A model generated the notes under the pieces. It saw nothing but the letters and a program-made list of their open reading frames with translations. It had not been told where the DNA came from and searched no databases. Position numbers and translations under genes: made by a program. A stretch of 64,000 nt of DNA. Origin: Psammoneis japonica. Taxonomy: Eukaryota. Below, piece after piece: positions 20,480 through 47,139 of the stretch. Where the stretch lies: the NCBI GenBank assembly GCA_008632985.1, contig QPGO01000173.1, positions 62,001-126,000 of the forward strand. Reading direction: 5' to 3'. The number at the start of each line of letters is the position of its first letter. Within the stretch, counting starts at the first letter, position 1.

Positions 20480-22132
20480 ATGAATGCTGGCAATACCCGT
20501 AAGCCTCGCCCTTCTGCTTCGCCATTGTGCTGCCTCGTCCCTTGCGTGAATGGTGAAATACGCAGTGGTGGTAGCAGCGGACAAGTCTCCCCGTCCCATG
20601 TTGATCTACTCCACATTCCATCTCTGGCGATTGGCGACTTCCTCAGTGATATTAACGAAAACATCTCTGGTGTCCTGTTCTACGAAGAGCGAATGCTATG
20701 CCTTTTACTCCATTTGAACAACCCTCAGAATCGAGTCATCTACGTAACTTCCATGCCTGTTTCGCCCACCGTTGTGGACTACTATCTCAGTTTACTATCA
20801 AACGTATCTATGGAAGACGCCAAACGACGTTTGTCCATGATTTGCTGCTACGATACAATGTGCACCGAGCCACTGGCTCTTAAAATACTCAAAAGGCCTC
20901 GCTTGATGAAGCGAATAAAGAATCAGCTCAGTCCAAGCAAGACGGTAATTTCTACGTATGCTCACACGGAGGCAGAGCAAGAAATCGCACGGCGACTCGG
21001 GATTAACCACGCGCTAAGTCCGATTCTTCCGGTTTGGGGAACAAAATCCGGATCACGCATCGCTTTTCGAGAACTCAACATTCCTCATTGCGTTGGCACT
21101 CACGATTCAGTATTCTCTGTGCAGGACCTTCTAAAGGAGGTTTCTGTGTTGATGGAACATCATCCGAATCTAGACACAATCATGGTGAAGCTGAACGAGG
21201 GCGTTTCGGGCTACGGCAATGCCAAATGGAAACTCCCAAAATCAAACAACGTCCAAGTTCTGGAAGAGTCTCTGATGAAAGATTTGCAGCCTGCTTCAAA
21301 TAAGAGTCCCACAGAGTATCTGGAGAGGCTGTCTGAATTGGGCGGCATTGTCGAAGAATTCTTGACCCATCCGGGGATAAGGTCTCCCAGTGCTCAGGGA
21401 CGAGTTCATGACGATGGATCCGTGGAAGTTGTTTCGACGCATGAACAAGTGTTGCACAATGGCATCTTTGACGGTTGCAGCTTCCCTGCCAAGGAAGAAT
21501 ACAGACTTGAGCTTCAACAACACTGTCTCGCTGTTGGAAAGTTTCTCGCCAGCAAAGGCATCCGAGATGAGAATTACGGTGTCGACTTTATGGCGTGGCA
21601 GGACAAGGAGTGTGGCGTGGGAGACGATGAAAAGTGGCATGTCAGTGCGATTGAAATTAATCTCCGTGTCTTGGGTACGTCGCACCCCATGATGACGATG
21701 AAGCTCGTCATGGTTGGCGGTAAAATGCTTGAAACTGGTGACTTTACGAATCGTGACGGAGAACCGCGATGCTATTTTGCGGTGGATTCGTTTCAGCACG
21801 AATGCCTTTCATCTCTTACTCCCGACGACTTGTTTGATTTGATCGACACCCACGAGGTTCTTCAGTATCACAAGGAAAGCAGCACTGGAACAATCTTTTA
21901 CATGATTGATTCTCTTCCATCCTTTGGGTGAGTCGAAAGCATATTCTTTCACTTTCTGTGATGTAGTGACGATTCGCTTGTTCATCGTTGTTTGACACTC
22001 GTTTCGTTTGTCGTACTCTAGCAAGGTCGGGTTCATGTGCATACAAGATACACCGCGAATAGTTTGAAACTTTTTGAAGAAGTGAAGGAACTTCTCCTTC
22101 AGGAATGCGAAGGCGAACCCTCCCTTGTTTAG
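20480..22132 (+). CDS. PGM1-related ATP-grasp peptide/amino-acid ligase (bacterial-type); intron 21928-22021; probable 1-nt deletion near 22057
   Basis: IPSL, FYEERML, VIYVTS.P, VDYYL.LL, KILKRPRL, WGTKSGSR, VKLNEGVSGYGNA, SPSAQG, STHEQVL, GC.FPA..YR, GVDF, IEINLR..GTSHP; last exon FGKVGFMCI. Confidence 0.85.
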
Positions 22133-22404
22133 ATTCTCGATACATTCAGATGGTAGATGATGCTGTAGAGCGTCACGTCGAAAACGACCGGTAGATTGCT
22201 TGTTTAGATTCCCGATACAAAATTCAGATGCTAGATGCTCTAGCAAGGTGGGGTTCAAGTGCATACAAGATACACCAGCGAATAGTTTGATACACTTTGA
22301 ACTTCTCATTCAGGAATGCGAAGGTGAACTCTCCCTTGTTTAGATTCCCGATACATTTTTCAGATGATAGATGTTCTCTAGAACGATATGTCGAATACGG
22401 CGGT
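22016..22404 (+). repeat. Imperfect tandem duplication of the last exon and 3' UTR of the ATP-grasp gene
   Basis: CTCTAGCAAGGT.GGGTTCA.GTGCATACAAGATACACC at about 22017 and 22238; CTTGTTTAGATTC.CGATACA occurs three times. Confidence 0.85.
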
Positions 22405-22619
22405 TACATTATATAAACTAACTATTGAACTACAGTAGTGACATCGAGCTATGTTGAATGTGAAGTGTAGCATTACTTTGATGCAGAGAAGGGACAGGTG
22501 CAACGCTTCCTTTTTTTGGCTCACTAATTTTGCATCTCAGCGAACATCCGGAGCATGTGATCTGGGATCGCTTTGTTTCCAGCCAATTGTGAGATTGCCT
22601 GAGAGTCACATCTAAACCA

Positions 22620-25600
22620 TGCAGGGAGAACAAGTGGTGCAGCAGTCGATCAACAAACGCAAAGTCAGACAGCTGCATGCAAATCCAGTTTAAAAACCAA
22701 GTTTCTACAGCAACCAGCGTTCCCGAAACTGGCAATCTCAGTCCTCAACCACCACAGCATGTCACAGCAGTCATCATCTTCATGGTTGCTGTCTCTCCAG
22801 GCATCTGATTCATGCTCTTCCAAACCAAGCTCCATCAGCATTAGAAACATTTGAATGATTTGAACATCATCCATTTCATGATGCTGTTGTCTTCTTACCT
22901 CATGATCATTTTGTTGCTGTGCAGAGTTCCAATGTTGGACAACTGCACAAAGGTCAGCTCACAAAAGCACCAAATGCAATGCTGGTGACTCTTGGAGTGA
23001 ATGTTGAACCGGCAAGTCAACGTCACCAAAAGGGAATCCCACGAAGCTTCCTGTGTCACTTGACACACTTGCCTTGGTTTCTTGCAGTGGATGTGGGTCG
23101 CTCAGAAGTTGTTCATGCAAACTTCAAACTTGTGACATGAAGGTTCCCAGTTACACCAAATGCAAAATCATGCAAACCAAATGACCCACTCCAAAGAGTG
23201 GGACAAAATGAAAGGTGAACAAGATCAGTGACAATGAAGTTCCAAATGCAGAGAGTCACCCATGTCAGGAGCTTCAACATCTCTCTTTTCAACACATCTG
23301 GGTTTCCCACATTTCCGTGACCCAGATGTTCCAACAAAATGAGTGCACAAAAGACAGTCCTTGAGCCCCTTGCATGACATCAAAATGGGAGTCTTGACAT
23401 GAGAAAAGAAGCTTCATTGACTTTTTTGGTGTTTTGTGAGAGAAAAACATGCACCCAAAAGCAGTGGTGCAAATGGCAAAAACTGGAGGTCACACAGTGA
23501 GAAAATTTGCTCTCTGCTTGGTCTGCTGAAAATCATTTTTCTGTTCTGAACAACCAAGCTGCTCATTTTGCCAGAAAGAAGGAGTTCCTTGCTCTTTTTT
23601 TTTGCTGCTGGTGGCTTTTGTGCTGTGGCAGAGCCATGGGTGATTTGTGCAAGGTGGTGCAACAAGCATTGCCGCCATTGCACTTCATTGCTTTGGCTGG
23701 CCAGAGCTGCTTGACATGCAACAATGCCAGGCACAGAGCAAAGTGCAAGACTGCTGCAGCAGCTTCTCTTTTGCATGAAAAAAAGCCAATTTTTTCTTGA
23801 TTCAAGGTCAAGATTGACAAGGCTTTCCTTCTTCACCCACAGGTTTGCTTGCTTTTTGTGTCTTGACTGCACACCAATCATGCAACCCCACATTGACAGC
23901 TGCTTTTTTCTGATGTCACCTTGGCAGCTCTCACAGGCTTCCCAATTGTCACCAAGAAAAAGATTTTGTTGCATGTGTTGCTTCACAGCCTTTGCATGAC
24001 CTGTTGGTGATTCATTGACAAAAAAACGACTCACAACAAAATCTGGCCAAGCAAAGGAAAGAGAGCACAGCCTGATGGTGTGCTGTGCTGACGCTCAACC
24101 CCAAGTTGATTGTGTGATCCAACACCAGCAAGACACACAAACAATGTGAGTTTTGTGAAAAAAAATGTCAGCTGAAAATGAGTGCCAAAGACAGTCCTTG
24201 AATTTCTCACATCACGCCAATGCTTGCTTGCACCTCAGCTGCACAATGGCTGGAGATGCAGGCACTGGTGTCTCTGAGGCATGAGAACAAACCAGAGAAG
24301 GAGCCAAAACTTCCATCAGGTGCAACTGCATCAGAGCAGCACCCTCTTCTTCTTTTTTACAAGCTTCTTCTCCCTGGTGTCCCTCCAGACCTCTGACATT
24401 CTCCCTGCCTCTGTGCACACTCTTTCTGCACCCCTTTGGTGATCATGCCTTTGCGTGTGTTCCAAAATGCACAAAGCTCCCATCTGCAGCACTGTTTGCT
24501 CTGTCACAAAAGCCCTTGGAGCAGCTGCCTCTGCCAACCCCATCATCAAGCTCTCTCCTCACACCTTTTTGTCTCATCCCAAACCACCCCCTTGGTGAAG
24601 CCTGCCAGCATTGGAGCTCTTTCTTGCTCCACCTCCCCCGCACACACCCGTCACTTCCTTGGTGTTGAAAACACCACCCCATCCGCCACTTCCTTGCCAT
24701 CAACATTGCTGTTCCTCCAGCTCCTCCCCTCGCCACCCCACAACTGGCTTGCCTGCCCCTTCTGCTGACACCTTGCCAAGGCACAAGGAAACCTCAGAAG
24801 CACCCAGGAGCAAAAAACACATGGCCAAAAATCAGAGAGAGGGTGTTTTCCAACAATGCAAGTGGCCAAAGCTGGAAAAGCTGCTGCCAAAAAAGCTGCT
24901 CTCTCTGTTCTCTGTCTGCTGAAAACAGCCATTCTCTGTGCATGATTTCTGTGCAGCCAATGCACCAAGAAGATGCGGCCACTTTCAATGTGCCCCCTCC
25001 ATTTGTTGTGCCAACCATGTCAACCACAAATGCAGCACTGACCATGCTCTGCACATTTTGCTGCTGGCTTGTCAGAAAGCTTTCCCGGCTGTTGGCCACA
25101 AGCTGCCTGCTCATTTCACCATGAAAAGAAGTCTGTTTTGTTGTTGTTGTTGTTGGCTGTTGTGCTGTGGCGGCAGCGCGAGAGTTTCATGCAAGATGGC
25201 TTGAGTGTTGCTGCCACAACACTTTGTTGCCACAGTGGGATGAGACATTGTTTGGCAACTTTCAACGGCGCATTGTGCAAAAACCACTGGCCACAGCAGC
25301 ATTTTTGCAAGGAAAGTTTTGTCAACTCAAGGTCGTCTGAGCCTGCATGACGAAGCTCACCCTTTTCTTGCTTGAGTGTTTGTTTGCTTTTTGCATCTTG
25401 GCTGCACTGATGCAAGCACAAGCCTTGTCTGACTTCATCTGGCATTGCTTCCAACAGCAACTTGCAAACTTTAAGAATGTGGTCGTTGTCAAGCGGCTTT
25501 TCTTGTGAGTGTTTTCACACAGCCTTTGCACAGCCTGGTGACACACACACAAAATTCAGCAAGAACTGGTCACAAAGAGGAGAAACCAAAGTTTGAAGCC

Positions 25601-25899
25601 TGACAATGTGTGCTCTTTTGACGGATCTTGAGATGCAACGCAAGCAAAACACACAGCCGCTGCCAGTGTTGCCAAATGATGGCGCCAGTGTTCACGTGCA
25701 CCCCCACGTTGCCGTTGCCCCATATCAGTTCGCAAGTTTCTGAGGTGTGATTGTCGCACTTCATCCGACTTTGCAGAAGCTTTTCCAACGTGCCCAACCT
25801 GATTGATGATTCATTGACACAAAAGAAAAGACTTGACACGGGTTCGCATGGCGCTTGTGAGCGTGACGTCGTGAAGGGAATGATCACCAGTGAGCCATT
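22620..25899. pseudogene. Hypermutated (TpA- and CpG-depleted) tract containing decayed, partly duplicated gene relics, probably on the minus strand
   Basis: Only 3 TpA in 23154-25899; ORFs in all frames lack Tyr and are rich in Cys/His/Gln/Trp; internal paralogous segments. Confidence 0.7.
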
Positions 25900-26409
25900 T
25901 AACGATTTCTCATTAAGTGTTTTCGTTTGTTAAACGATCTGACACCCCTTCAGACAGTTTTACTTAATGTTCGATCTTGGAGCTCGCACAGTTAGTCCGA
26001 TGATAGATGTGTGTTACAGCCAGTAGCCGAATTGATTATGATCTCATACGAAAGCGAGCGAGACACGCGACCTATGTACTGAGTGTTTTATTTAACAAAC
26101 TGAAACAATTAAGGAAAAATTGTTATATGAATGATTGCCAAAGACAATCGTGCCTGACGTCAACACTTTCTTATGTCTTAATTACGCCTATGCGAACCCC
26201 TGTCAATTGATCTCATTCGACATTGCCCCAACTGTTCGCAAACTTCTAGGGCGTGATTGTCGTTAAATGGCTATTCTAGTACTTGACTTAGTAGCCTTTA
26301 CACAACCTGGTGATTTACATCACAACTTTTGTCTCGAAGCCCCGAACCTCACAGAACCCTCTCATAAAACCCAAAACGACATCAATTTCGTGCATCTTCT
26401 TCTGCCACA

Positions 26410-27993
26410 ATGAAACTATCGTACAAAGGAGGATTCCTCCTTCTGACTACCGTGCTCTGCAAGGCGACAGGTGTGTCACATTGTTGTAGCTGGAGATCTT
26501 TGGATGGCGCCGCCCCCACTGGCATGTCGTGCTTCCGCTTCCGACTCACTTGTTGTCATGTTGTTCTTCTTTTCTGAGATAGAGCTCCCATCAGACTCAT
26601 CAGATGTAAGTTTCACTGAAACGCATGGCGTTATACCCTTGTTCATTGCGCTAGAGTTTCTCACCTCCTCACGTTTTTCATCAATGACGATGCCTCAGCC
26701 TGCGCCTTTTGAAGTTGACGACGCTCCAGACCCGACCCAGAGAAGCCTTTTGGGAGATGTACGTTGCATTATAAAACTATCTCTGTCCCTTTTATTAATA
26801 AGTCTCACTTTTCAAAACCTCTCTGCTCTGCGTGAAATGTTTGAATCTCAAAAAAGATCCCAGGCCAGTGTTGTTTCAAGGGAAACCCGACGTGCTTTCT
26901 GAAAACTAGGTACGCATGCGAACACGCTGGGGGGACTTACAAGGGAGGCTCCCCGTGCCTAGAGAAGACTTGTAGCAGTGGTGCTTGCTGCTTTCCCGAT
27001 GAAAGCCGATGTGTTGTGGTGCAGCCTAGCGTGTGCCGCAACCTCGGAGGCTACTTCAAGGGCTTCGGCTCGGTTTGCAACGTTGCCACATGTCCGGAGG
27101 CCTTTGGTGCTTGCTGTTATTCAGACGGAGAATGCAAGATCCGTAAAAAGAAGAAGTGTGGTGGTAAGTAGTGAATGATTGAAGTGGTTCTTGTTTGATC
27201 TCTTGCCTTTCAAAAACGTTCTGGCACTTACACATACCGGTATTATGCTTTCGTGTGCATGCTAGGCAACTGGCAAGGCCCAAAAACAAAGTGTCTACCC
27301 GAAACGTGTGCTCCACCCCCGCCCGTCAAATTACCAGTTTGTGAACCTGTGAATCCCCACACCAAAGTTGGCGGATACACTTTGGGCGAACTTCAGCTCC
27401 TCTGGTGGAATTGGAACCTTTGTGAAGATGCATTTGGTTCCACTGATGGATCGTGTGCTTCTCAAGACCAGGTTCCCGAGGGTTGGATCTTTCTTGCGGG
27501 AGCTGGTGGCAACTGCTCGGCCGCCCCTCTTGAACGCATTTGTGACGTCCCCGAAGGGATTTACAATGTGTTCCAGCCCGTTATAAACGTCGCCTGTGCT
27601 GACTACTCTGATGATGATGCCGATTGCGATAAAACCCGCGAAGGATGTACTGCAACTTCTGAATCCATCGAGCCCAAGAGCAGCTACTCAGAGCTCTTTG
27701 CCAGGCAGGATGGAAGACTTCTGCATATATTCTACCTTTTCGATGACACACCACGCTACTTTCCTATGGCCTGCAAGAGCGGAAAGGAGTATTGCGATGA
27801 GTGCGATGATCCTGTTTGCACATCGCATAAAGGAGTTGATAGCTACCCAAATTATGGATGGTGGGCCCTCAAAGAGCATGTCTCCATCAAGGCAGGTATC
27901 GCCACAACCTTTGAGGTAGGCGCCAACAATCTTGATTTCAATTTCTGTCCTCGCGTCAAGTACACGCTTCATGGTGTCAAAAACAAATACTAG
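26410..27993 (+). CDS. Secreted multi-exon Cys-rich protein: three GxCC repeats, Pro linker and a prokaryote-like extracellular domain
   Basis: Signal peptide MKLSYKGGFLLLTTVLCKAT; exon about 26858-27163 encodes GQCCFKGNPTC...GGTYKGGSPCLEKTC / GACCFPDESRC...GGYFKGFGSVCNVATC / GACCYSDGEC; last exon WWNW...WIFLAGAGG...RICDVPEG..VFQPVINVAC; 5' exon structure approximate. Confidence 0.7.
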
Positions 27994-29965
27994 TGAAAGC
28001 ATATTGGATCGTTCAAAGTGAAAGAGAGAACAAGATTCAATCGGTTTATTGTTTTGTGAGAGAAATCCAAGTTATTGAAAGATGTGGGAACGATATGGCG
28101 AGCCGCGTCTTTGTAACTTATTTAGAAGGTCGGGCAACTAATTGTGTACATTTTAGCTTATACTGATGCGGAGATGAACTCGTGCAATGTTCGGTGACAT
28201 TGCTTTACAGCGGGTATATCTCCTCATTGGTGATTTCGTGTCGCATTTTATAGTAATGTTGTACCGACAAACATTTGATGTAGTATATTTATTATCCTTT
28301 ATCCTTTGGTTGCGCATTAAATAGGCATACACTACAGTGCTGTAGCTACTGATTGTTTTCTTGACCTTTATCGTAAAGTTTTTCTCCCACGCAATACTCT
28401 CAACCGATAAGGAATCATGCAGCGGTACCGTATTGTTGTGGTTTAAAATAATGAAGAGACTAAGTCGCACTCACGATGACGAAAAGAAAATCAACAACGC
28501 CGCCTGGTGTTATTGTTGAGTTGATGTGATCGACTTTTCCTGCCTCTATGTTCCTCTTTGCTGCTAAACCTTGCCGCCCATACTCTCCATATATCGTGAT
28601 TGTATCTCTACTCAATAAGTGTGAGAGGTCAATGTTCTCTGCCAATATCATCGATGTCACGCTCCGTCAGCGATTAACAAACTCTGTAATTAGCGAAACT
28701 GCGAGCTCCTTTTCTCTAATCCCTATTTCTTTGTCTCTCTTGCATTCTGAGCTGCTGTAGGGCCTACTCCTATCTTCCCTCAGTCGTTGCTTTCACCCAA
28801 CGAAAACGAGTCATTGCTGAAAAAAGATACACACTACCGGGCACTCTTTCAACTCGTTCGTTACACGACATCAGTCAAGTCTGTCACGCTCCATTCCTTA
28901 TCCAACTTGGCTACTGCTTTTGAAAACCGTGTGTTTTTAGCGTCGATTGTTCCAAAATTCTCGATGGCTGAACGCGTCGTTGCCAACGACTTCGACTATA
29001 CGGCCCTTTTCTTTACCCCTTGTCTCTGCTCTCTGCGTAGATCACAAGTGGCCTACACTTCTGAGAGCTCTGTTTCAATGAATTCTTTGTGCCTCTGCAT
29101 TCAAACGATCGCTACAATCAAGGAGTACGTGCTTCTGTGTGAAGCGTCGCCGTTGTCCTTGACTTTTGTACGAAGAAACCATACACACCCGGGTTGCCGC
29201 CGAGCGCACTGTCGTCGGGCAACACCGTGTCCTTTTCTCTTGTTTCTTTTATTCTTTGTACATCTCTTGTTTTATGAGCCCTTGTGGTGATGTTTGTTAT
29301 TGCTTAGAGAAACTACTTCTAGCTAGACAACCTCTAATACCGGTAGACTGTGAATAGAAGATAGAATTACACGCGTGATCCTTCAGATGAGCTAGCTCGT
29401 TGCGCGCGTGACGAAGTTCACCCGTTGCGGGCGGTGCGGTGGCTATGGTATGACAGACGCGGTGGAGCCGACTTGAATAAATGCATTGAGTTGGCACATT
29501 GGGTGCCGCAGTGCTCCTCTCAGTGGTGCCTGCGGTAGCTCTCTCTCTCTCTACTACCGGTAGCTCTAGAGTAGAGTGGGTAGCTCTCTCTACTAGTCTC
29601 TAGTAGAGCAAAATAGCTGCCAACGTCGTGAAAAGCATTGTGTAACTGACTTGCGTCTTTAACCTACTGCCACATACAACATGTTGTCCAAGCCAAGGAC
29701 CTAAAACAGACGGAAGCGAAGATGCAACGTCACATTTATTTGTTCTTAGGAAGAGAAGCGAAGGAGTCGAATATGTAAACCTTGATGAATCCTTAAACTG
29801 GAAGAAAGATTCCAAGGTACCTGAATATATAACGTCTCATGAATCCCCGTTTCCGGGGAGATTTAGAATCTTGAATGTAGATGGTCGCATAACGACGTAG
29901 AGGTTCATGAATCCCTGTGTCTCTAGGAGATGAGAACACGGGGACATGATTGTAGGTGATCCTAT

Positions 29966-31332
29966 TTACTGGGAGAAGGTAAAAGACATGAGGTCTTGAT
30001 AGTCAGCATAGGTCCACGTGCTTCCAGTAACACCAACGAAAACCTGGTTGCCCGTGAAGAAGCTAGCTAAGTCTATGTAGGTGGTGATGAGTGGATGTGC
30101 GGGAGCAACGTCTGAAGATCTCCTGTGATACACCTTGAGAGCCCGACTTTCTCCGTCATAGTCGACCCAAACACGTCCTATGTAATACTCCCCTGTGCGA
30201 AGGGGAGCCCATTCCTGGGCCAGTCCTTGGCGATAACCATTTTCATCCACGAGTTGCACATGAATTCGGCGTCCGCCACTGTCGCCGTACTCCGGATTAT
30301 AATCTGTAGCAAAAGAAATTCAAAATACGTTAGTTTTGGCTGGAATGCACTTCCTATGGAAACGACCGAATTGATGCTTCACTCACACCCGTCAATTTCG
30401 ACAACAAGCGCCGGTGCAATAGCTGGCACATCTTGGTTGGTGTAGTATGCTGCGGAATACACGCCCAGAGCACCGCCGGAAAACCCAAGTGCATTCACGC
30501 CGCGAGGATCCTGGTGCATTGTGAATGTCATTCCATCGCCATCGCCTTCTTGATTTTGACCGTACATGCGATATCCTACCTCTGTGCGAAAGGAATACTT
30601 TTCGTTCATTCTCGTCGTCATGAAGGCTGATGAAGCACGAACGCCGGGAATGTTGGGAGTCAAGCGTATGCCGCATTGATCTTGATAACCCAAGTGGCGA
30701 GGATAATCTGCCGTGTTGCCATTCAGAGTAAACGGGTTGCCATCACAGAAGCCATTGGGATAGTCAGCCTCAGTGACTTCAACGCAAGGGGGCACAGTAC
30801 TTTCTCCAATAGACTCAAGCAAGATGCTAACGGCGTCCCGGAGTTTCTGCACATTTTCATACCATCTCCCAAAAGCTCGGTAATTTGACGCAAGTTGAAG
30901 GTGACCTTGTATAAGCCAGTAATCGTCTTCGTCCAAACGCGTGAGAATCGCATTCAACAATGTATAGGCTGCGTCACTAGCCTGTTGACTAATGTCATGT
31001 AGGCTTTTCAAACAGTCACGCATCTGACAATTCTCTCTTTCGATAATCCTTCGGGCCCATGAGGTCACTGAGTTCAGCTCCTCAAGTGATGCAAGTGCGT
31101 CTCCTGCCTCGATCTCCGTTTTCGCGGCTCTTGCATTGTAAATCATGTTCCGGGCCATTTGGGCGTTCCATTGATTAATATAATTTGGAACGTCCTCGGC
31201 GGCCTCAATTAACTTCTCGAGAGACTCAACGTATTCGCAAGTGACCGTCTCAAATCCGTCGGGGAAGTATGCCTGTACGCCATGGCCAGAGAGAAGACTA
31301 GCCACGACCACAGCAAAGATGATGGTCTTCAT
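29966..31332 (-). CDS. Secreted protein with N-terminal helical region and L-type (legume-like) lectin domain; intron 30304-30386
   Basis: Signal peptide; FTLNGN, IRLTP, GDGMTFTMHQDP, GGALG, LVVEID, VWVDYDG, VFVGVTGST. Confidence 0.85.
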
Positions 31333-32312
31333 TATTTAGTTTTCTTTGTTGACTTAATCGCTTTGTGCTTTTACCTGGAAAACAGAAATGCGTAGAGATA
31401 AAGCAATGGAGATGAATGCATGTATCGAAGTCGATCGCAGTTCAGTTCTATTCGCTACTACTTACACAAGAAGAGCCTTGTTGTTTTGTGCTTGACTGTA
31501 TTTTGTGAGACTGTTTCACAATACCGCGATCAACATAGTAGTACTTTCTACACAGCAATGAGGCTTCGCAATTTCGACGTCTACCCTCTAACATTTAACA
31601 GATTGAGTAGTAGAATGATCATACAAGCCTACTGGATCAAAAACCCTTGCAGCCTGAATGAGAGTCTTGAGCATCACTGGACATGATTTCAAATATGGGT
31701 TGACCATAGAAATGATACTGATGTGCAATCGCGGATTTGATGGAGTTCGCAAATCAAGCTTCGTTCGTCGATCTGTCGTCGGCCTCCTTATCGTTATTGT
31801 CTGACAGGAGAAGTCGCTTGCTGCCAGTCCATAGAATGTGATGGAAAGTATCTTAGCGTGTCGTTGTTTCTGCTTTCAATGGGACTCGTGGGACTGATGC
31901 TCCAACAGAGGGTAGATAGCAAGGGTGCATCAATGCTATGGCGAATCATGAGGATGTTGACGTTCATCGTTCATCGGGCGTCTGCTCCCGGCAGTGGTCG
32001 GCCACGGCGCTGCCAGAACACTCTCTTCTATCCAGCAACCAGTCTACATTACCGAAAGCAAAACACCAAGCAAGGGCATGAACAGCGAGCCGTTTACAGC
32101 GGAGCACCAAGCACCATGGTCCATGGTTGAATGTCGTACTGGGTGCATGTCCGGGTGGATGACGCACGGACGAAGGGGCGGCGAGTCAGTCCTGCGTCAG
32201 TCGTCAAACACTTTCAATTTTGCTCTCCGGTTGCTCGCCATTAGCCCTTGCTTTTACCAGACCATTCTCAATTATCTAACCTCTATTTTACTATCAGCAA
32301 TCTATATCCTCT

Positions 32313-35300
32313 CTAGTTCGCCATCTTTTTCAGTGCTGCTGCACTCTCCGGGCCAGTTGCGTTCACCATGGCTGTGAACTTGCCATCCTCATTTTGCAGC
32401 AACGAGCTGGGTGGGCCAAACTCTACACACTTTCCACGGTCCATCACGCACACAGTATCGTAATCCATCACGGTATTTAGTCTGTGTGCTATTGTGAGAA
32501 GAGTCGTTTCCGGAAACTGGCTTCGAAGCATCTCTTGGACGAATTCGTCTGTCGAGCCGTCGACCGCCGAGGTTGCCTCGTCAAGTACCAAAAGCTTAGG
32601 TTTGGCAAGTAGAGCTCGAGCCAGGCAGAGCAACTGCCTCTCCCCGGCGCTATAGTTGGCACCAGCTTCTTCTACGCTCTCGTCCAAGATAGCAACCCCC
32701 CTATCCGTTCCAGGGAAGCGAACCAACGCAAGGGCCTGGAGGATTTCCTCGTCCGAGTGGGAGGAGAACGGATCGAGGTTGGACTTGAGAGTTCCCGAAA
32801 ATAGTACCGGGTCTTGCGGAATGATGGACATTCCGTTTGGGCGTCCCCTTACATCCGAAAGGCCGAGCAAACTTAGATCTACTCCATCCAGGGATATTGT
32901 TCCTTCTTCAATCTCGACGAGCCGAAATAGTGCAGCGGTAAGCGTTGACTTACCAGCCCCTGTTCTCCCAACCACAGCACACCTCTCACCATGCTCGAGT
33001 GTGAATGTCAATCCGTCAAGCGCCAACGCGAGCCCAGGACGATAACGCATTTTTACACAATCGAACTTCAGCGTCCCCTTGCGTGGCCAGGACGAGTCTA
33101 GCTGGACTTCCTCCGACGTCAACATGCTTCTTTCCTGAGGCAGTAGCTCGATGCTATGCATCCTTTCTATTGAAGTGATTGCCGCCTCGGCTTCAGAAAA
33201 GGCGTTGATGAGAAATCCCAAAGTCACAGTCATAGCACTGGCCCAAATAATGAGAAGGCCGGCAATGCCGGGGGACAGTTGCAGTTGCTCATTAAAGGAA
33301 ATAACAAACATGCAAGCCGCCAAGGTTACAAAAGCTCCCAGCGTCTCCAGCCTCACTGCCAACCATCTTCTCGATGACAGAAAGTTGAGCATGGCAGAGC
33401 TATTTCCGTCGAGATAACCTTGAAATATCCCCAAAAAGTAGCTATTCTTGTGATAGGCTCGAATGGTAGATGACCCGTCCAGGCCCTCTGCTAAAGACGC
33501 CTGTATGGGAGACCTTGACACCGCGTCAAGACGCTGAAGATCTGCAGCACTCCAACGGTAATGTCGAAGGATCAAAACGTATAGGAACAAAACAACAGCA
33601 TTTACAGCTGCCATCCAAGGCAACACGGCAATCATGACGATCTGTCCAGCAATAAGCCAACTGCATGCAATAATGAAGATTGACATGTGCTGCGTCAAAG
33701 TAATATCAACAACCTCAACATCATAGGTGAACCGATTTAGGACGCGTCCCAGCGGAACAGTGTCAAAGTACGACATGGGGGCATGGAGAACGCGCCGCGT
33801 CATGTTGGAGAAGAGACGCTCGGCAGTACGGTAGCCTCCAAACACGGCCCACTGGGACCGTGCGACCAGGAAGCAAAGCAATGAAACGACCAAGATGGCA
33901 TATACAGCGACATACTGTAGCTGAGCTGACCTTCCTTCCAATTGATCCGGGAATTCCCTACCAAACGCAGTAATGCTCTTGCCAATAGCTGAAGTCCATG
34001 TTGCCAGCCACCAATCAATCGCTACGTAACTGCCCCTATCACACGCCATCAAAATCACTTGAACGATAGCAAACACAAAGCCACCTGCATAGGTAAACCA
34101 GATCAACCATGTTTGTATACTCGATATTCCATGTTCACGCTCTTCTTTTGTCATTATTTCTCCCTTTGCAGCGTCCTGTGTTTCGGCAGCTGCAGAAGTG
34201 CCTTTGTCTTCCCCATTCTTTGTCTCCGTCTTCGATGTTTCTTTGTTGCCGTGCTGCAGAGAAGAACGCATGGATTCTATCTTTTCCCTGTGCAACTGAT
34301 TCTCCGGTTCGAAGACTTCGAGTTCGCTCCACGTGCCATAAAATATAGGCTCTCCATTATCCAGAATCAAGATGTGACTGACCCGCTGCAGTACGTGTAC
34401 GGCGTGAGTAACAAGCACTACTCCAGCATTTCTCAGAAGACCATTGTCGTCCGCTTCAAATAGGTTGTCAAAGACTCTCTGAGACGTTCCCGCGTCCAAT
34501 GCCGACAAAATGTCGTCAAACAAAGCAATGTCTGGATTTGCATACACGGCTCGCGCAATGGAAACTCGTTGCTTTTGTCCACCACTCATGGTAACTCCGC
34601 GCTCTCCAATCTCTGTCAGATCTCCTGCAGGCCACATTTCCATGTCGGGCCTCAAACAGCACGCATCAAGAACTTTTTCATACCTGTCTTTGTCGAACTT
34701 CAGGCCGAACAGAATGTTGTCTCGGACGGTGGCACTAAGAATGAAAGGAGACTGACCGGCATAGGCAACAGAACCGCGGGATTCAACAATGGTATCGTCT
34801 GTAGACTGAAGGTCGCCAAGAAGACCTTGAATAAGAGTCGACTTGCCCGATGCGACTTGCCCTACAACCGCCATCACTTCTCCTCTCCCCAATGTGAAAT
34901 TTACACTTGACAAAGTAAAGGCTGGGCTACTGGTCTCGAGGTCTTCGTCTCCAGCACTCATCTCGGAATCAATTCCACAATGAAATGACGCATTCTTCAC
35001 CTCCAACACGGGTAGCGTCTTGTCGACATCATTTCCGCATCCTGATGTGGTGGAAGTACTCAATGACAAATCCCTGTCATCGCGGGTTAAAAATTCAGAG
35101 ACTCGATGAGCCGCTTGAGCTCCCAGTGCAGCTTTCGACAGAAGCTGACCTGCCTGATTGATGGGGAACTTGAGCATATTGAACAGCATCAGGATGGTAA
35201 AGGTGGTTGACGCCGTCAGAGTGTTTCCGTCTTGGGCTAAAGTGTATGTGAAAAAGGTAGCAGCGCTGGCCAGCACTGGTGTAAAGACCCGAATCACCAG

Positions 35301-36347
35301 AGTCATACCCCACACGGCCTGCTCCTTTCTCACCAGCTTCATTTCTTTCCTCCTCACTTCTGCCACCCGTGCTTCGAACTTGTCTTCGTAGTTGTTGAGT
35401 TTTGTAACTTTGATGCCCTGTAGCATGGCAGTAATAATCTCGACGCGCTCGTCCGCCACGGCAACACGCTTTCGTCGAATCCTTACAACCTCAAACGCGA
35501 CGCGCTTGGACAGAGGAACCAACCCAACCAGAATAAAGGCGCCAACCAGACAAGTAGGACCAATAATCAACAGGAGGGCCGTAACAACAATGACAATGGC
35601 CAAAGGAGCACTCCAAATCATGTGTGCCTCATGCATGACTTCAAATAGCTTTTGTGTATCGGTAGCAACCAAATTGGTAACCTGGCCAGAAGAAAGTCCC
35701 GCCCGACCCTCTGGGCTGAGAACCAGAGACTTTTTGTAAATGGCGGACATGACTGCTGTTCGGATAGTAATGCCGCTCTTGTACGCTAAGAACTGATGCC
35801 GATGAGTAAACAATGCATTGATTATCGCCATGGTGAATATCAGGATAGCAAAATGTATCGTTTCATTCAATACATATCCGCCTGGATTGTCCTCTAGTGC
35901 CTGCAAAAGTTGCATGACTAGTATTGGTATTGAAAGCTGAGAAAGTAGGGCAACGAGCTGGCAGAAACCGGCAGGAACAAAATCAGATGCGGCGAGATAC
36001 CACAGGGTACGGAGAAAGTTGTGATTTTCTCTATCATAAACTGACCAAAATTTGCTTCCCAAGTTTGCTGCTTCCATTTTCGTGGGCGTCCGGTAGAGGT
36101 CATCCTGGGTGAGCTGAACGTCCGAGCCCTTCTTTTTCTGTTGCGCTCCTTTGCGAAATATTGGACTCATGTATGCATACCACCACTGGTCGTAAAGGCC
36201 GGCTATTTTCGATTTCAGAGTCAGACGCGGTCGCTCCTCGGGCCAACACAACGACGAGGCACATTGCGACGTTCTTGTACCGTCCCCCTGTTCGGAGCAG
36301 CAGCATGAGCTTCCAGATTTGTCGCTTATCGACGGTTGCATGCCCAT
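32313..36347 (-). CDS. ABCC/MRP-type full ABC transporter (1344 aa, intronless)
   Basis: Two TMD-NBD halves; GQVASGKST, MSGGQKQR, GRTGAGKST, YSAGERQ, LDEATS, TIAHRL. Confidence 0.97.
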   Translation of the reverse strand: MGMQPSISDKSGSSCCCSEQGDGTRTSQCASSLCWPEERPRLTLKSKIAGLYDQWWYAYMSPIFRKGAQQKKKGSDVQLTQDDLYRTPTKMEAANLGSKFWSVYDRENHNFLRTLWYLAASDFVPAGFCQLVALLSQLSIPILVMQLLQALEDNPGGYVLNETIHFAILIFTMAIINALFTHRHQFLAYKSGITIRTAVMSAIYKKSLVLSPEGRAGLSSGQVTNLVATDTQKLFEVMHEAHMIWSAPLAIVIVVTALLLIIGPTCLVGAFILVGLVPLSKRVAFEVVRIRRKRVAVADERVEIITAMLQGIKVTKLNNYEDKFEARVAEVRRKEMKLVRKEQAVWGMTLVIRVFTPVLASAATFFTYTLAQDGNTLTASTTFTILMLFNMLKFPINQAGQLLSKAALGAQAAHRVSEFLTRDDRDLSLSTSTTSGCGNDVDKTLPVLEVKNASFHCGIDSEMSAGDEDLETSSPAFTLSSVNFTLGRGEVMAVVGQVASGKSTLIQGLLGDLQSTDDTIVESRGSVAYAGQSPFILSATVRDNILFGLKFDKDRYEKVLDACCLRPDMEMWPAGDLTEIGERGVTMSGGQKQRVSIARAVYANPDIALFDDILSALDAGTSQRVFDNLFEADDNGLLRNAGVVLVTHAVHVLQRVSHILILDNGEPIFYGTWSELEVFEPENQLHREKIESMRSSLQHGNKETSKTETKNGEDKGTSAAAETQDAAKGEIMTKEEREHGISSIQTWLIWFTYAGGFVFAIVQVILMACDRGSYVAIDWWLATWTSAIGKSITAFGREFPDQLEGRSAQLQYVAVYAILVVSLLCFLVARSQWAVFGGYRTAERLFSNMTRRVLHAPMSYFDTVPLGRVLNRFTYDVEVVDITLTQHMSIFIIACSWLIAGQIVMIAVLPWMAAVNAVVLFLYVLILRHYRWSAADLQRLDAVSRSPIQASLAEGLDGSSTIRAYHKNSYFLGIFQGYLDGNSSAMLNFLSSRRWLAVRLETLGAFVTLAACMFVISFNEQLQLSPGIAGLLIIWASAMTVTLGFLINAFSEAEAAITSIERMHSIELLPQERSMLTSEEVQLDSSWPRKGTLKFDCVKMRYRPGLALALDGLTFTLEHGERCAVVGRTGAGKSTLTAALFRLVEIEEGTISLDGVDLSLLGLSDVRGRPNGMSIIPQDPVLFSGTLKSNLDPFSSHSDEEILQALALVRFPGTDRGVAILDESVEEAGANYSAGERQLLCLARALLAKPKLLVLDEATSAVDGSTDEFVQEMLRSQFPETTLLTIAHRLNTVMDYDTVCVMDRGKCVEFGPPSSLLQNEDGKFTAMVNATGPESAAALKKMAN

Positions 36348-36569
36348 GGTTTTACTTTATCAAGAGATTCAACACCTTGTAGGGCCCTAGAGTGAGAAAA
36401 TCACCTGTGTACGTTTGAACTCCCTCTTTTCTCCAGCCTTCTGTCCCCAGTCACCGCCATTGCGAGAATCAAAGCAAGAACTTCTTCGAAGTTGCTGTGA
36501 CGCGAGACCGACCACGTGTGCACGCACTCTCGCACCAGGGCAATGGCCGATGGACAGACCTGCAACAGC

Positions 36570-36840
36570 TAGAGATGCGTATTCTAGGAGTGTTAGTCTA
36601 TGCCATTGCTCCGCTCTCTCTACTCTACTCTAGAGTCTCTAGCTAGAGTAGAGGGCTACTCTCTAGAAGGTAGGGCCCCTACTACTAGCTAGTACTGGTA
36701 GATAATAGCGAGCTAGCTAGAGAGTAGCGAGCTAGTCGCAGGAGTAGTCTAGCTAGCTTCATCTAGAGAGAGTAGCTCTAGAGTAGCCGCAGTAGTCGGT
36801 CGCAGTGGTAGAGTAGGTAGTAGTAGCAGCAGCAGCTAGT
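36570..36840. other. CTAG/TAG-saturated low-complexity island upstream of the ABCC gene
   Basis: CTCTAGAGTCTCTAGCTAGAGTAGAGGGCTACT...GCTAGCTAG...GTAGTAGTAG. Confidence 0.8.
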
Positions 36841-37507
36841 GTCATCCTCCTTGCGGCCTTTACACAGTACCAGCATGCAGACATCTTCACACCTCGGATG
36901 TAGCTACACGGTTACAAATCAACTAACTGTGTTGTTGCAAAGACCTGTTTTGCATGTGTCCTGAGTGACTTATTTCACACATGAAATGGGCACATCCACT
37001 GAGCTTCTGCAACATAAGTGGGGCTATGAAGAGGAGGCCGCACATGACATGGGCCCAGATCAGCGCATTGATGTTACCACACAAGATTTGGGATTCACCT
37101 CACCGCTGTGGCATAGAACGGGTTCCAACGCAAGGGCCCCGCAAGTTCAATGAGATGAATGCGTACAACAAGAGGCGTCCACAAAACTTTCTTGGTTTCA
37201 TCAGAGTCGAGGTTTACCAACAAGGAGCTGCATGCAGGAGGCCTTCAACCGAATTCCTTGAGGGACCAAGGTTAGATCAAGCCAAAAACCTTCCTTTACC
37301 GTGTTCAGATTAAAAAGATCAGATTTAGATGCGAGAGACTACGATTTTCTTTAACGGAAAGACCATATTTAGTAAACGATAGAACTATGTAATGGCACCG
37401 TCCACGTTCAATGTAAAACACTGTGCTACCTTTCTTGCATGCAAGATTCAAAGATGGGTGCATCAACGGATACGTAACTGTGACATGGTTCTGAAAATTC
37501 GACTGTC

Positions 37508-37837
37508 TCATTTCTTTGTCTTGAGCCTTTCCCTCTTTCGACGTTTCCTTAGCTTGTGTTTGTTCATCTTTGCCCGCCTTTTCTTGAGCGTACTGCTCAT
37601 TTGCCAAATCGATCTCTCAAAATACTCAACCCATGGTGTAGCGCCTGTAACCATCCCGTCGAGCCACGTTGAAGCTCCATCAAAAACGCTAGTCTGAACA
37701 CTCCAAAAGGAGCCACGGTGCACTATTGCTTGCGGTGCAGTCTGGAGTTGTAGGCTTGGGCAAGCAGTAGCAAAGGAACGCGCCCTGCTGATGCTACATC
37801 CTCGAGCAAATAATTGTCGGTGTGCGACGGAAAACAT
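37508..37837 (-). CDS. Mitochondrial ribosomal protein mS38 (COX24/AURKAIP1, DUF1713)
   Basis: Arg/Ser-rich transit peptide MFSVAHRQLFARG; C-terminal SSTLKKRRAKMNKHKLRKRRKR. Confidence 0.85.
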   Translation of the reverse strand: MFSVAHRQLFARGCSISRARSFATACPSLQLQTAPQAIVHRGSFWSVQTSVFDGASTWLDGMVTGATPWVEYFERSIWQMSSTLKKRRAKMNKHKLRKRRKRERLKTKK

Positions 37838-38194
37838 AACGACAAAAATTCCGCTCTCTTTTTCTTTCCTGCCAACTCGAACTTCTGTTTTCAAGATACG
37901 TTATCTGCCTCTCTACTCGGCTTTTGTTTCTCGTCGTAGCAAGTGCTGTGCTTTGGTATGGTACGGTAGACAGTGGGATGCTCAAAGCCGATCGATCACC
38001 GCAATGTCGCTGCGTTTGCTCATCATTGTCTGTGTCTGGTTTGAGGTGGGCAGGCGGACAGACGGGTGAGGGAAGGGCAGACCGACCGACAGATGTACCT
38101 ACGGCACATAAGACAACAGATGCTTCGGAGTAGAAGCGAAGCAAGCACGCAAGCAAGCAAGGAAGGATGTGACACCACCAATGGTGATTTTTTA

Positions 38195-39316
38195 CGCTCC
38201 CTCAAGTGAAACTTTGGGCCATGAAAAACCTTTGAGAGAGCACAAAGAAAATTGCAGCCTCCAGGCATTTGTGGCTGCACTGCCTTCACAAGGGCCAAAG
38301 CAAAAAAAGCAAGAAGCGCCTTCGAGAGAGTGGAGCGGTGTGTTGTTGAGGGCAGCAGCAGCGTGACAAAGAATGCACATGCATCTGTGAGAGGGGTGCA
38401 GCACTGCACAAAGCATCCAACACATGGTGGGGTGGAGACTGGGCAAGTGATGCAAATGAGGCACGTTGGGTGTTTGTTGAGGGTGCAAGCAGCGGCGCCG
38501 GTGACGAGAGAGATTCTTGCACGCAGAGGCTGCAGCAGCATGGTCGACAGCCTCGGGCAAATTTTTGCAACAAACAACAAGGTCACACAACAATGGGGCA
38601 CATGCGAAAAACACACCACAGGGCTTTTTAGGACACACGTGTGGTGCTGATGCCAAGACGAATCAACAAGAAACTGATCATGATGCTGCAGCATGCCTGG
38701 CACTGAACTGGCAGGTTGGACCGAGGCAGGCAAAACAAAAAAAGACAGTTGCCAAGACAATGAGCACACACAGATGTGTGAACAAGTATGTTGCTGGCTG
38801 CACACTGCAGACATGGTGCCAGTGCACGGCAGCACCAGACAACAACTGAAAGTGTGCTCCTCTTGCTGGCTGGGAAAAGAAACGGCGGGGAGCTTTCTTT
38901 TGCACGTGGCAGCCCAGCAGCGGCAGTCTGTTCTTGATGCTGAGCAACAATGTGGCATCACACTCAAATGATGCAGGCTCACATGTGAACACTGCTGGGT
39001 GGCATGTGCTGGACCCACACGTTGGCTGCAAGCCAGTGAGTGTGCAAAAGAAGAAGCAAGACAGCAGCAGCTCCTGGGTGTTCTTGCTGGGCACACTGTG
39101 CTTGCCAGGTGGGAGGTCAGTGGGTCCCTCCTCTGATGTGCAGTTTGCTCAACAATTTTCTGGACTTCAAATCTGACAGCAGACCCTTTCCATTCGAGAG
39201 AATGGTCTGAAAGTTCTGCAGAGAGGCGCGGGAATCATCGAGCCCGATGCGTTCGTCTGCTTTTCCCGTGCGCGAGGTTTCGCGCGACTCACGACTCACG
39301 CAGGATCCGAAAAAAT
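38195..39316. pseudogene. Second TpA-void hypermutated tract
   Basis: Only 2 TpA (38629, 38787) in about 1.1 kb; spurious Cys/His-rich ORFs on both strands. Confidence 0.65.
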
Positions 39317-39455
39317 TATATATCATATACTTATGAATTTATGAAGAATCATAAATCGGTTCTACTTTTCATTCTGGTATTCATGTATGCCCACCATGCT
39401 GACATTGAATAGAGGATACAAAATGAATTATATATTAATTTATGAGTATATAATT
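39314..39455. mobile_element. Possible small AT-rich MITE
   Basis: Ends ATATACTTATGAATT and AATTTATGAGTATAT are imperfect inverted repeats; abrupt AT/TA-rich insert. Confidence 0.35.
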
Positions 39456-39701
39456 CATTCGAAAACATTTCGCTTTCGGCGACCACAAGATTTCGCAGCC
39501 ATCGCCTATTTTCGCACACACCATTCGCGTTTCTTCATGACGCCCATTGAACTTCTAATACATAAGCAGTAGCAAGTGACGACCAATCAAGAAAATTAAA
39601 AGAGACGTTAGTGTAAGGAGCCTAGGAGCATCCCATTATTTGTTACTTGCCTTTCCTGTTTGCAGAGCCGAAGCCGTTGTTATCAATCATCAAGCAGCAA
39701 A

Positions 39702-46393: not shown

Positions 46394-46777
46394 TTTTGCA
46401 GAAAACAAGATTTCGAGGTTGTTATGCAGAGAGGTGTGTATGTTTTGTTGCGTCTGAAATGCCACCGAAAATGACGATTCGAAATCAAAGCTCAACAGGG
46501 ATACTCTATGGCACTCGATGCGTACAGTATCCTTAAGACGTTGTATAAGGAGAAGAGACGTAAAAAGAGTGCAACAACAAAGACGAAGTTGCATAGCCGT
46601 GTTCAATGTTGATGTCAACGGACACGCGGAAATGATGCCGCGATGATTTCTGTTCGGATTTCGCACCCCAAAAAGCGAGCTCGTGCCTCGTACAAAAGTC
46701 ACGTAGAATCTACATTAACGTCTTGCGAGTAAATTAGATACTACGAAATACCTAACAATTGTCATAATTTAAAAGTA

Positions 46778-47139
46778 TGGGGACATCCCGAATAAATTTA
46801 GCCAGTGGCTAAAAACCTCCTGTAGAATTATACGCATTTCTCCTGGTATGCGATTTATTTAATGATAACGCCTTTTAACGCCACCCCATTGTTTTCTTTT
46901 ATATACATATAATTATTTTTAGTTTTTTGTTTTTGTATTTATTTTTAGAGGCATAAAAGCTAAAGGATTTATATTAACGAACGTTATAGTTAGCAGAAAA
47001 CCGTTACAGATATGACATTTATAGGCTCAGTAAAGTGGATAGTAAATATTTTTTGTGTAGAAAATATACTAGCGTACAAACCTGGTATGTGTCTACACAA
47101 GATTTTAGCCACTGGCTAAAATCATTCGGTATGTCCCCA
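46778..47139. mobile_element. 362-bp MITE with 37-bp TIRs and TA flanks (Tc1/mariner-like)
   Basis: TGGGGACATCCCGAATAAATTTAGCCAGTGGCTAAAA ... TTTTAGCCACTGGCTAAAATCATTCGGTATGTCCCCA, 34/37 match; AT-rich interior. Confidence 0.9.

Follow-up and report, generated by a model that had tools for sequence, protein, structure and literature searches.

We propose that two small intergenic tracts in the genome of the diatom Psammoneis japonica have been hypermutated in place, their TpA dinucleotides having been turned into TpG and CpA until almost none remained. The tracts lie in a stretch of 64,000 nucleotides, here called the window (contig QPGO01000173.1 of GenBank assembly GCA_008632985.1, positions 62,001 to 126,000 of the forward strand), and all positions below are counted from its first letter. 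The process would be regionally confined, of the kind reported for the alga Bigelowiella natans (Mettrop et al., bioRxiv 10.64898/2026.01.13.699255, 2026-04-14), driven to saturation and joined by a separate decay of CpG. We give this reading a probability of about 0.72, and it rests on the composition of the tracts, on their confinement, on their presence in the reads and on the way in which they differ from two paralogues.

Composition and confinement of the TpA-poor tracts

The core of tract 1 (23154..25899, 2746 bp) contains three TpA dinucleotides, at 24358, 25472 and 25723, where 185.5 would be expected from base composition (observed/expected ratio, o/e, 0.02). CpG is also scarce (38 against 156.3 expected, o/e 0.24), TG (n=299, o/e 1.93) and CA (n=304, o/e 1.62) are in excess, and AT and GC stand at o/e 0.64 and 1.40. 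As A and T still make up 25.6% and 26.4% of the core, the signature does not reflect GC richness. A sequence-only reading of the same DNA had named exactly these three TpA, had put CpG at about five in 23154-24350, and had described TpG and CpA as saturated, A and T as abundant, and TpA as fading over about 22450-23150 and returning at 25900. Counting bears all of this out, with the five CpG located at 23316, 23673, 24027, 24092 and 24215.

The full TpA-poor span of tract 1 is 22475-25899. TpA thins suddenly past 22474, seven copies remain in the partly mutated left edge (22475..23153, TpA o/e 0.14, CpG o/e 0.34), and TpA returns abruptly at 25900, the left border thus being graded and the right one (25899/25900) sharp. 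The CpG-poor span has other limits, about 22725-25620, and within 25622-25899 CpG density is normal and a single TpA is left. The two longest TA-free gaps measure 1206 and 1114 bp, the longest outside both tracts being 259 bp, and the Poisson probability of a gap of 1206 bp at the window-wide TpA rate is about 1.5e-21. Across 23001-26000 the consecutive 1-kb windows have Rho_TpA of 0.01, 0.02 and 0.12 and Rho_TG+CA of 1.77, 1.67 and 1.73. The core TpA at 24358 and 25472 are kept in assembly and reads alike, and each is preceded by a run of T (tttttTAc and ctttTAa), a hint, from two sites, of a protected context.

Tract 2 (38132..39316) lies between a COX24-like open reading frame (ORF; 37508-37894, minus strand) and an ORF that starts at 39660 on the plus strand. 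It surfaced in a sliding composition profile and is absent from the sequence-only reading. Its 1185 bp hold three TpA (o/e 0.03), with CpG at o/e of about 0.50, TG at 1.82, CA at 1.74, AT at 0.70 and GC at 1.41, and it fills one 1-kb window (Rho_TpA 0.13, Rho_TG+CA 1.85). Among the matches listed in a comparison recoded to purines and pyrimidines there is no strong match of tract 2 to tract 1, and by this comparison the two are judged unrelated in sequence.

The rarity of the signature was gauged on 915,112 bp of environmental contigs unrelated to the window. Most of them are distant (45% identity at best) and do not come from close diatoms, and they serve for composition only. A TpA o/e of at most 0.15 together with a TG+CA o/e of at least 1.5 occurs in 0 of their 8708 windows of 500 bp and in 37 of the 636 windows of the 64-kb stretch, all 37 within the two tracts. 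Control windows that are free of TpA have 62-73% GC and normal TG and CA. The window as a whole has a TpA o/e of 0.57 (1-kb median 0.58) and a TG+CA o/e of 1.18, and this low level of TpA may stem from ordinary coding bias or be a faint mark that the same process has left across the genome. Two short intergenic islands, 36251-36750 and 46501-47000, are rich in TpA (o/e 1.0-1.5 against the window median) and form the extreme opposite to the tracts.

Direction of change relative to paralogues

A plain BLASTN search of the window with the tract returned almost nothing, and recoding into purines and pyrimidines was needed, with E-values that are meaningless below the top matches. A three-way alignment was built from copies of a repeated unit, all on the plus strand: copies A (23800..24035) and B (25335..25565) lie within the tract, about 1535 bp apart, and copy C (26115..26345) lies outside it, has normal TpA and serves as the unmutated comparator. 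Copies C and B share 86% purine/pyrimidine identity over 162 columns. None of the 14 aligned, ungapped TpA of copy C is kept in either in-tract copy; they read CA at 5, TG at 4 and otherwise at 5 sites in copy A, and TG at 6, CA at 3 and otherwise at 5 in copy B. The CpG of copy C have become TG or CA at 6/6 sites in copy A and 6/7 in copy B (12/13 together), and sites that are TG in copy C still read TG or CA at 11/16 in copy A and 11/17 in copy B. Thirteen sites are converted in both A and B, with the same product at 9 and the opposite product at 4, a mixture which implies that some changes were inherited and that others arose independently, through hits on the opposite strand, after the two copies split. 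The sequence-only reading had predicted that changes from TA and CG to TG or CA would dominate an alignment of the tract to paralogues, and such changes account for 9/14 of the TpA sites in each copy and for nearly all of the CpG sites.

The second comparison concerns a segment of the left edge (22782..22914, minus strand) that has a close paralogue, single-copy and located elsewhere in the genome, the contigs having been compared by eye with a 3-base offset. Nine differences separate the segment from the closer paralogue, and at five of them (22784, 22787, 22806, 22865 and 22882) the window has TG or CA where the paralogue has TA or CG; the reverse is found at none. Read in the minus-strand frame of the ORF at 22665-22958, two of these differences are changes from Tyr to His and from Asp to Asn. 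A process that acts in this manner on coding sequence would explain why the open frames of the tracts are free of Tyr and rich in Cys and His.

Presence in the reads and variation at the locus

Reads were taken from three runs of one sample and study, probably the assembly's own, with the library type unrecorded and no run listed as RNA, and contigs derived from them were compared with the assembly over 21000-40000. The X1 contigs (word depth about 58-62) span 22261-23020, 23297-24277, 24252-29797 and 38056-39576 with 0-4 differing letters each, and one of them joins tract 1 across its right border to normal gene-bearing DNA. Since these contigs carry the tract sequence and bridge the border, an assembler artefact is excluded, although the agreement is not fully independent support, as the runs probably come from the assembly's own sample.

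Of the 97 rows in the table of differences between reads and assembly 40 are listed, and our counts cover these. Thirteen of them are differences carried by the sole full-depth X1 contig at their position. Eight fall within the tracts, which total 4.6 kb, and 5 in the remaining 14.4 kb (binomial p=0.005). Every in-tract difference is a transition, and 3 of the 5 outside are transversions. Three of the eight set TA against TG or CA (23153, 25723 and 38114) and another three set CG against TG or CA (22725, 38855 and 39037). At 23153 and 25723 the variant abolishes a further TpA, 25723 being one of the three survivors of the core. With a weight limited by the 40 listed rows and by the uncertain relation of run to assembly, this pattern suggests that the TpA and CpG changes arose recently, or still arise, at the locus itself.

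A model for TpA loss in the tracts

In the model that we favour, a locally confined process would turn the A:T pairs of TpA steps into G:C in non-coding nuclear DNA, a hit on one strand giving TpG and a hit on the other giving CpA. A second, separable process would act on part of the same DNA and turn CpG into TpG or CpA, most simply through deamination of 5-methylcytosine in methylated, silent DNA, and TG/CA would be the common sink of both. For the first process we infer that adenine is deaminated to inosine, the enzyme being TadA/ADAT-like, with a natural substrate in which U precedes the edited A. As TpA is its own reverse complement, however, the sequence alone cannot separate adenine deamination from a modified thymine that mispairs. 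The target DNA would be silenced or foreign, and the process would serve genome defence.

The division into two processes that share one sink is drawn from the differing borders of TpA and CpG depletion in tract 1 and from tract 2, where TpA has fallen to 0.03 and CpG to 0.50. The near equality of TG and CA in the core of tract 1, and the lack of strand clustering beyond background (runs test z of -1.25 and -2.0, inside the background range of -2.57 to 0.05), argue against editing of one strand at an RNA stage and for action on duplex genomic DNA. When TA and CG were converted to TG or CA in local non-coding DNA, the correlation with the 16-dinucleotide profile of the tract rose from 0.55 to 0.91. 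The tetranucleotide TGCA has a density of 16-19 per kb in the tracts and of 5.1 per kb in the background (3.2-3.6x). Residuals that conversion of TA and CG does not account for were noted over 23154-25899 and 38194-39316; conversion of TATA to TGCA was considered as the source of their low AT and high GC and was rejected, TGCA not being above its dinucleotide expectation.

Several points weigh against this model. Copies A, B and C are old: their identity is 52-58%, and alignments of approximately 195-224 columns contain 56-60 transitions and 27-38 transversions. At 5 of the 14 TpA sites in each in-tract copy the change is of another kind, and part of the alignment is perhaps wrong. Copy C adjoins tract 1, yet is unmutated. 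The spectrum is drawn from a small sample, some 200 aligned columns of old copies and a few variants, and the variant counts cover the 40 listed rows of 97, carry no polarity and come from reads that are probably of the assembly's own sample. The residuals recur in each half of tract 1 as well as in tract 2 (AT 0.62-0.70, GC 1.39-1.41, AA/TT 1.2-1.4) and may reflect something beyond TA/CG conversion, such as a wider sequence context or a preferred substrate. Finally, Pfam searches over 41 ORFs in and around both tracts, homologue searches and searches of viral contigs found no viral or transposon domain, family or homologue, and a foreign origin of the targets is something that we infer. The claim of the sequence-only reading that a regional process from TpA to TpG and CpA is superimposed on CpG decay therefore stands in part: the loss of every aligned TpA, mostly to TG or CA, is as it had supposed, and the smallness and age of the sample hold it back. 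Its statement that no such mechanism had been described has been overtaken by the 2026 preprint, which shows this spectrum in B. natans.

A wider model can be put forward more tentatively, in which the tracts would be the product of a programmable DNA adenine-editing defence, in effect a natural adenine base editor, targeted to chromatin domains, specific for T-A and shared across the Stramenopila, Alveolata and Rhizaria (SAR) or older still; we consider this possible, though doubtful. Under it, the combination with CpG methylation in diatoms would drive silenced DNA irreversibly to a state of TG and CA only, the window-wide TpA o/e of 0.57 would be a leaky genome-wide trace, and the residual low AT and high GC would indicate that the sequence context is wider than the one reported in B. 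natans.

Alternative explanations

TpA and CpG are depleted together in both tracts, they share a common sink, and the listed in-tract variants are equally divided between the two (3 TA and 3 CG), all of which would fit a single repair or mutation bias at every pyrimidine-purine step, for example mismatch correction that is biased where chromatin is in a particular state. We regard such a single process as unlikely, since 25622-25899 is normal in CpG with 1 TpA, tract 2 retains half of its expected CpG and almost no TpA, and the spectrum in B. natans consists of TpA changes only (210/211 and 20/20 being A>G or T>C) with CpG unmentioned (bioRxiv 10.64898/2026.01.13.699255). An origin elsewhere, in which the DNA was hypermutated before it arrived, as an integrated cDNA or viral copy that had undergone ADAR-like A-to-I editing as RNA or as a replication intermediate, or as a piece of a natively TpA-free donor, is more improbable still. 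It would accord with tract cores for which no host-like homologue was found and with the short dispersed-repeat pieces within tract 1. Editing of one RNA strand, however, predicts TG without CA, and the two are present in almost equal number, both within single copies; moreover, the graded left edge passes into what appears to be a copied host-like coding fragment, reads and assembly differ at TpA and CpG sites of the same locus, and the viral-contig searches yielded no relatives. A match to foreign or viral sequence was an outcome that the sequence-only reading had itself reckoned with, and neither the homologue nor the viral-contig searches produced one.

Selection offers another route to the same composition, if the tracts were functional elements that avoid TpA and CpG, either as a chromatin or nuclease-avoidance signal or as transcripts shielded from RNases that cleave at UpA. 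The residual low AT and high GC are alike in two unrelated tracts, and the 367-codon open frame of tract 2 exceeds dinucleotide-matched random sequence (P=0.005), as such function might require. Against this, the tracts show no coding periodicity, no Rfam family and, for the long frame of tract 2, no homologue among 1.84 billion representatives, the signature is strand-symmetric, the borders are graded and not discrete, and the variants are exactly of the type expected from a mutation process, so that we think selection as improbable as prior hypermutation. Least probable is an artefact of sequencing or base calling, in which a modified T or A at TpA would be misread and the true DNA would be TpA-normal. 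The unrecorded library type and the origin of all runs in one sample, probably the assembly's own, leave room for it, but the k-mer contigs are self-consistent at about 60x over both tracts, and a strand-specific miscall at a palindromic step would yield conflicting words. In addition, the in-tract copies differ from their paralogues in indels, transversions and CpG changes as well, and the differences between X1 and assembly at 23153 and 25723 are further losses of TpA, not restorations.

Comparison with known systems

In-place hypermutation of TpA, the reading that we retain, has been reported for the integrated nucleocytoplasmic large DNA virus (NCLDV) and virophage DNA of B. natans. In 15 mutation-accumulation lines 231/302 nuclear single-nucleotide mutations fell into these NCLDV and virophage regions, 230 of the 231 being A>G or T>C, and the GC-biased ones all hit TpA and yielded TpG or CpA (bioRxiv 10.64898/2026.01.13.699255). 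The rate was about 1000-fold over background, in some lines only, and for the enzyme the authors suggest, as a prediction only, a DNA adenine deaminase that resembles ADAT2; the text of the preprint has 0 occurrences each of CpG, diatoms and stramenopiles (bioRxiv 10.64898/2026.01.13.699255). The tracts described here share with that system the regional change of TpA to TpG and CpA on both strands, with long-term TpA depletion and a gain of CpA+TpG, and degraded targets that lack annotation. By the cluster criterion of the preprint tract 1 counts comfortably as a cluster, through the three 1-kb windows given above, and tract 2 fills one window. The hosts differ, a chlorarachniophyte (Rhizaria) there and a diatom (Stramenopila) here, as do the sizes and settings of the targets, with tracts of 1.2-3.4 kb amid host genes here and viral regions of about 25 and 186 kb mutating in the lines there. 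Depletion is also more complete here (Rho 0.01-0.12, the NCLDV region having 0.45) and comes with strong loss of CpG, on which the preprint is silent. Finally, the target in B. natans is viral, whereas no viral or transposon ancestry was detected for our tracts, whose signature is known from sequence alone. Literature searches found no report of TpA hypermutation in a diatom (in the broader searches, among the matches listed).

Repeat-induced point mutation (RIP) of ascomycete fungi changes CpA to TpA and hence creates TpA. It resembles the process proposed here in being a regional, dinucleotide-specific transition hypermutation of non-genic DNA on both strands, and tract 1 does contain internal duplications. 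The direction is reversed here, however, as TpA is at o/e 0.02 and CA at 1.62, and most of tract 1 is single-copy in the reads. Furthermore, not every duplicate is mutated, the adjacent copy C retaining the 14 TpA that could be aligned as well as its CpGs, of which 7 align to copy B, and this unmutated neighbour argues against RIP-like sensing of repeats.

The literature describes CpG-directed RIP-like hypermutation in basidiomycetes and decay of 5-methylated CpG (5mCpG) in methylated repeats (PMC3318451, PMC5381629), and, for the centric diatom Cyclotella cryptica, methylation that is chiefly CpG and concentrated on repeats (PMC5124317). The CpG o/e of 0.24 and the conversion of paralogue CpG to TG or CA at 12/13 sites resemble such decay, and the CpG half of the signature would be explained most simply by deamination of 5-methylcytosine in methylated DNA. 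As an account of the whole signature 5mCpG decay was rejected, because deamination of cytosine cannot remove TpA and the CpG-poor and TpA-poor borders are unlike. Adenosine-to-inosine (A-to-I) deaminases with a preference for a 5' U are known from ADAR hyperediting and from TadA and ADAT2-ADAT3, which act on U33-A34 of tRNA. Both the A>G outcome and the T or U before the A fit the specificity for TpA, and deamination of the A-to-I type is our leading hypothesis for the chemistry. Those enzymes act on RNA, whereas the strand symmetry and the in-place variants seen here require action on genomic DNA.

TpA-directed genomic hypermutation is so far known from one 2026 preprint on a single rhizarian alga. 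Should our model be right, its fingerprint in a diatom would mean that the process is ancient within SAR or has evolved repeatedly, and that small intergenic tracts without recognisable viral ancestry are targeted as well. What is new here is the different major lineage, the saturation, the small intergenic targets, the co-depletion of CpG and the low-AT, high-GC residuals that the tracts share. Diatoms dominate ecologically, and genetic work is feasible in some of them. Comparison of deaminase-fold genes across the lineages that carry the signature, followed by knock-outs, could lead to the enzyme, and the base-editing field would have an interest in a natural deaminase of DNA adenine that is specific for a dinucleotide. 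For annotation, such tracts yield long, spurious ORFs, free of Tyr and rich in Cys and His, in every frame, and these should not be annotated as genes.

Genomic setting and open frames of the tracts

The flanking genes encode a 1344-aa ABCC-type transporter, an IQCH-like ATP-grasp protein, an L-type lectin and the COX24-like ORF. Relatives of the transporter include proteins of Ditylum brightwellii (67% identity) and Thalassiosira spp. (65-66%), the best overall reaching 73-74%, and as its best named relatives are diatoms, the window is taken to be diatom nuclear DNA. Tract 1 lies between the ATP-grasp gene and a pair of approximately 223-bp direct repeats on its left and a 234-bp palindromic element on its right. 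The direct repeats (22016-22400), in which TRF called no array, consist of blocks 88-95% identical, are normal in TpA and adjoin the graded left edge. The palindromic element (25896-26129), with 39-nt arms that are 82% complementary, is likewise normal in TpA and begins exactly at the sharp right border. It could have been inserted later, as a hairpin or as an element like a miniature inverted-repeat transposable element (MITE), or it could mark the boundary of the domain.

Parts of tract 1 are duplicated within it, the duplications being old and offset by about 1535 bp. The tract is mostly single-copy in the reads, with short pieces, at about 22992-23200 and 24248-24290, found in 13-14 contigs. 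The former is a dispersed repeat piece in the left edge, where 13 X1 contigs overlap 23045, and several contigs jump about 80-140 bp, from 23024-23078 to 23156-23175. Consensus strings of the dispersed repeat were tried for the scoring of changes and set aside as too noisy by eye (agreement 0.41-0.74).

Three-base periodicity in the tract cores has a signal-to-noise ratio (S/N) of 0.33-0.94, which is not significant, against 5.3-12.6 for three real genes of the window, and the cores are therefore read as non-coding. The left edge of tract 1 (22475-23153) has weak periodicity (S/N 2.53, P=0.037) and appears to hold a decaying copy of a host-like coding fragment; its ORF at 22665-22958 has no match among longer proteins, which is weak as evidence. 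The sequence-only reading had remarked on overlapping ORFs rich in Cys and His, and tract 1 indeed has many overlapping open frames on both strands that are rich in Cys, His and Ser. Pfam matches were obtained for 3 of the 41 ORFs, two of them in flanking ORFs (Lectin_legB at 29966-30319 and COX24_C at 37508-37894) and one, Med16_C, in the tract ORF at 25116-25514, where it is sub-threshold (E 0.042; 14.6 bits, the cut-off being 21); none of the 24 ORFs of tract 1 reaches a curated cut-off. The open frame of tract 2 (38023-39096, minus strand, 367 codons from stop to stop) is longer than those of 1000 dinucleotide-matched random sequences at the P value given above. It was considered as a coding relic and rejected, as it lacks 3-base periodicity (S/N 0.45) and a homologue, the 357-aa frame of tract 2 having 0 matches among the representatives searched. 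The long frames of both tracts have no relative in viral contigs, and Rfam, TRF and tRNA scans of tracts and flanks found nothing.

The X2 contigs track gene bodies, for example 32281-36453, and the X2 run, although recorded as 'DNA?', seems to behave like RNA. None of its contigs lies over 23536-26071 or 38118-40000, a lack of cover that is no evidence of silence. One X2 contig skips 91 nt (31370>31462) with CT..AC ends, which are GT..AG on the minus strand, and the skip is missing from X1; it points to a putative intron upstream of the lectin-like ORF at 30379-31332.

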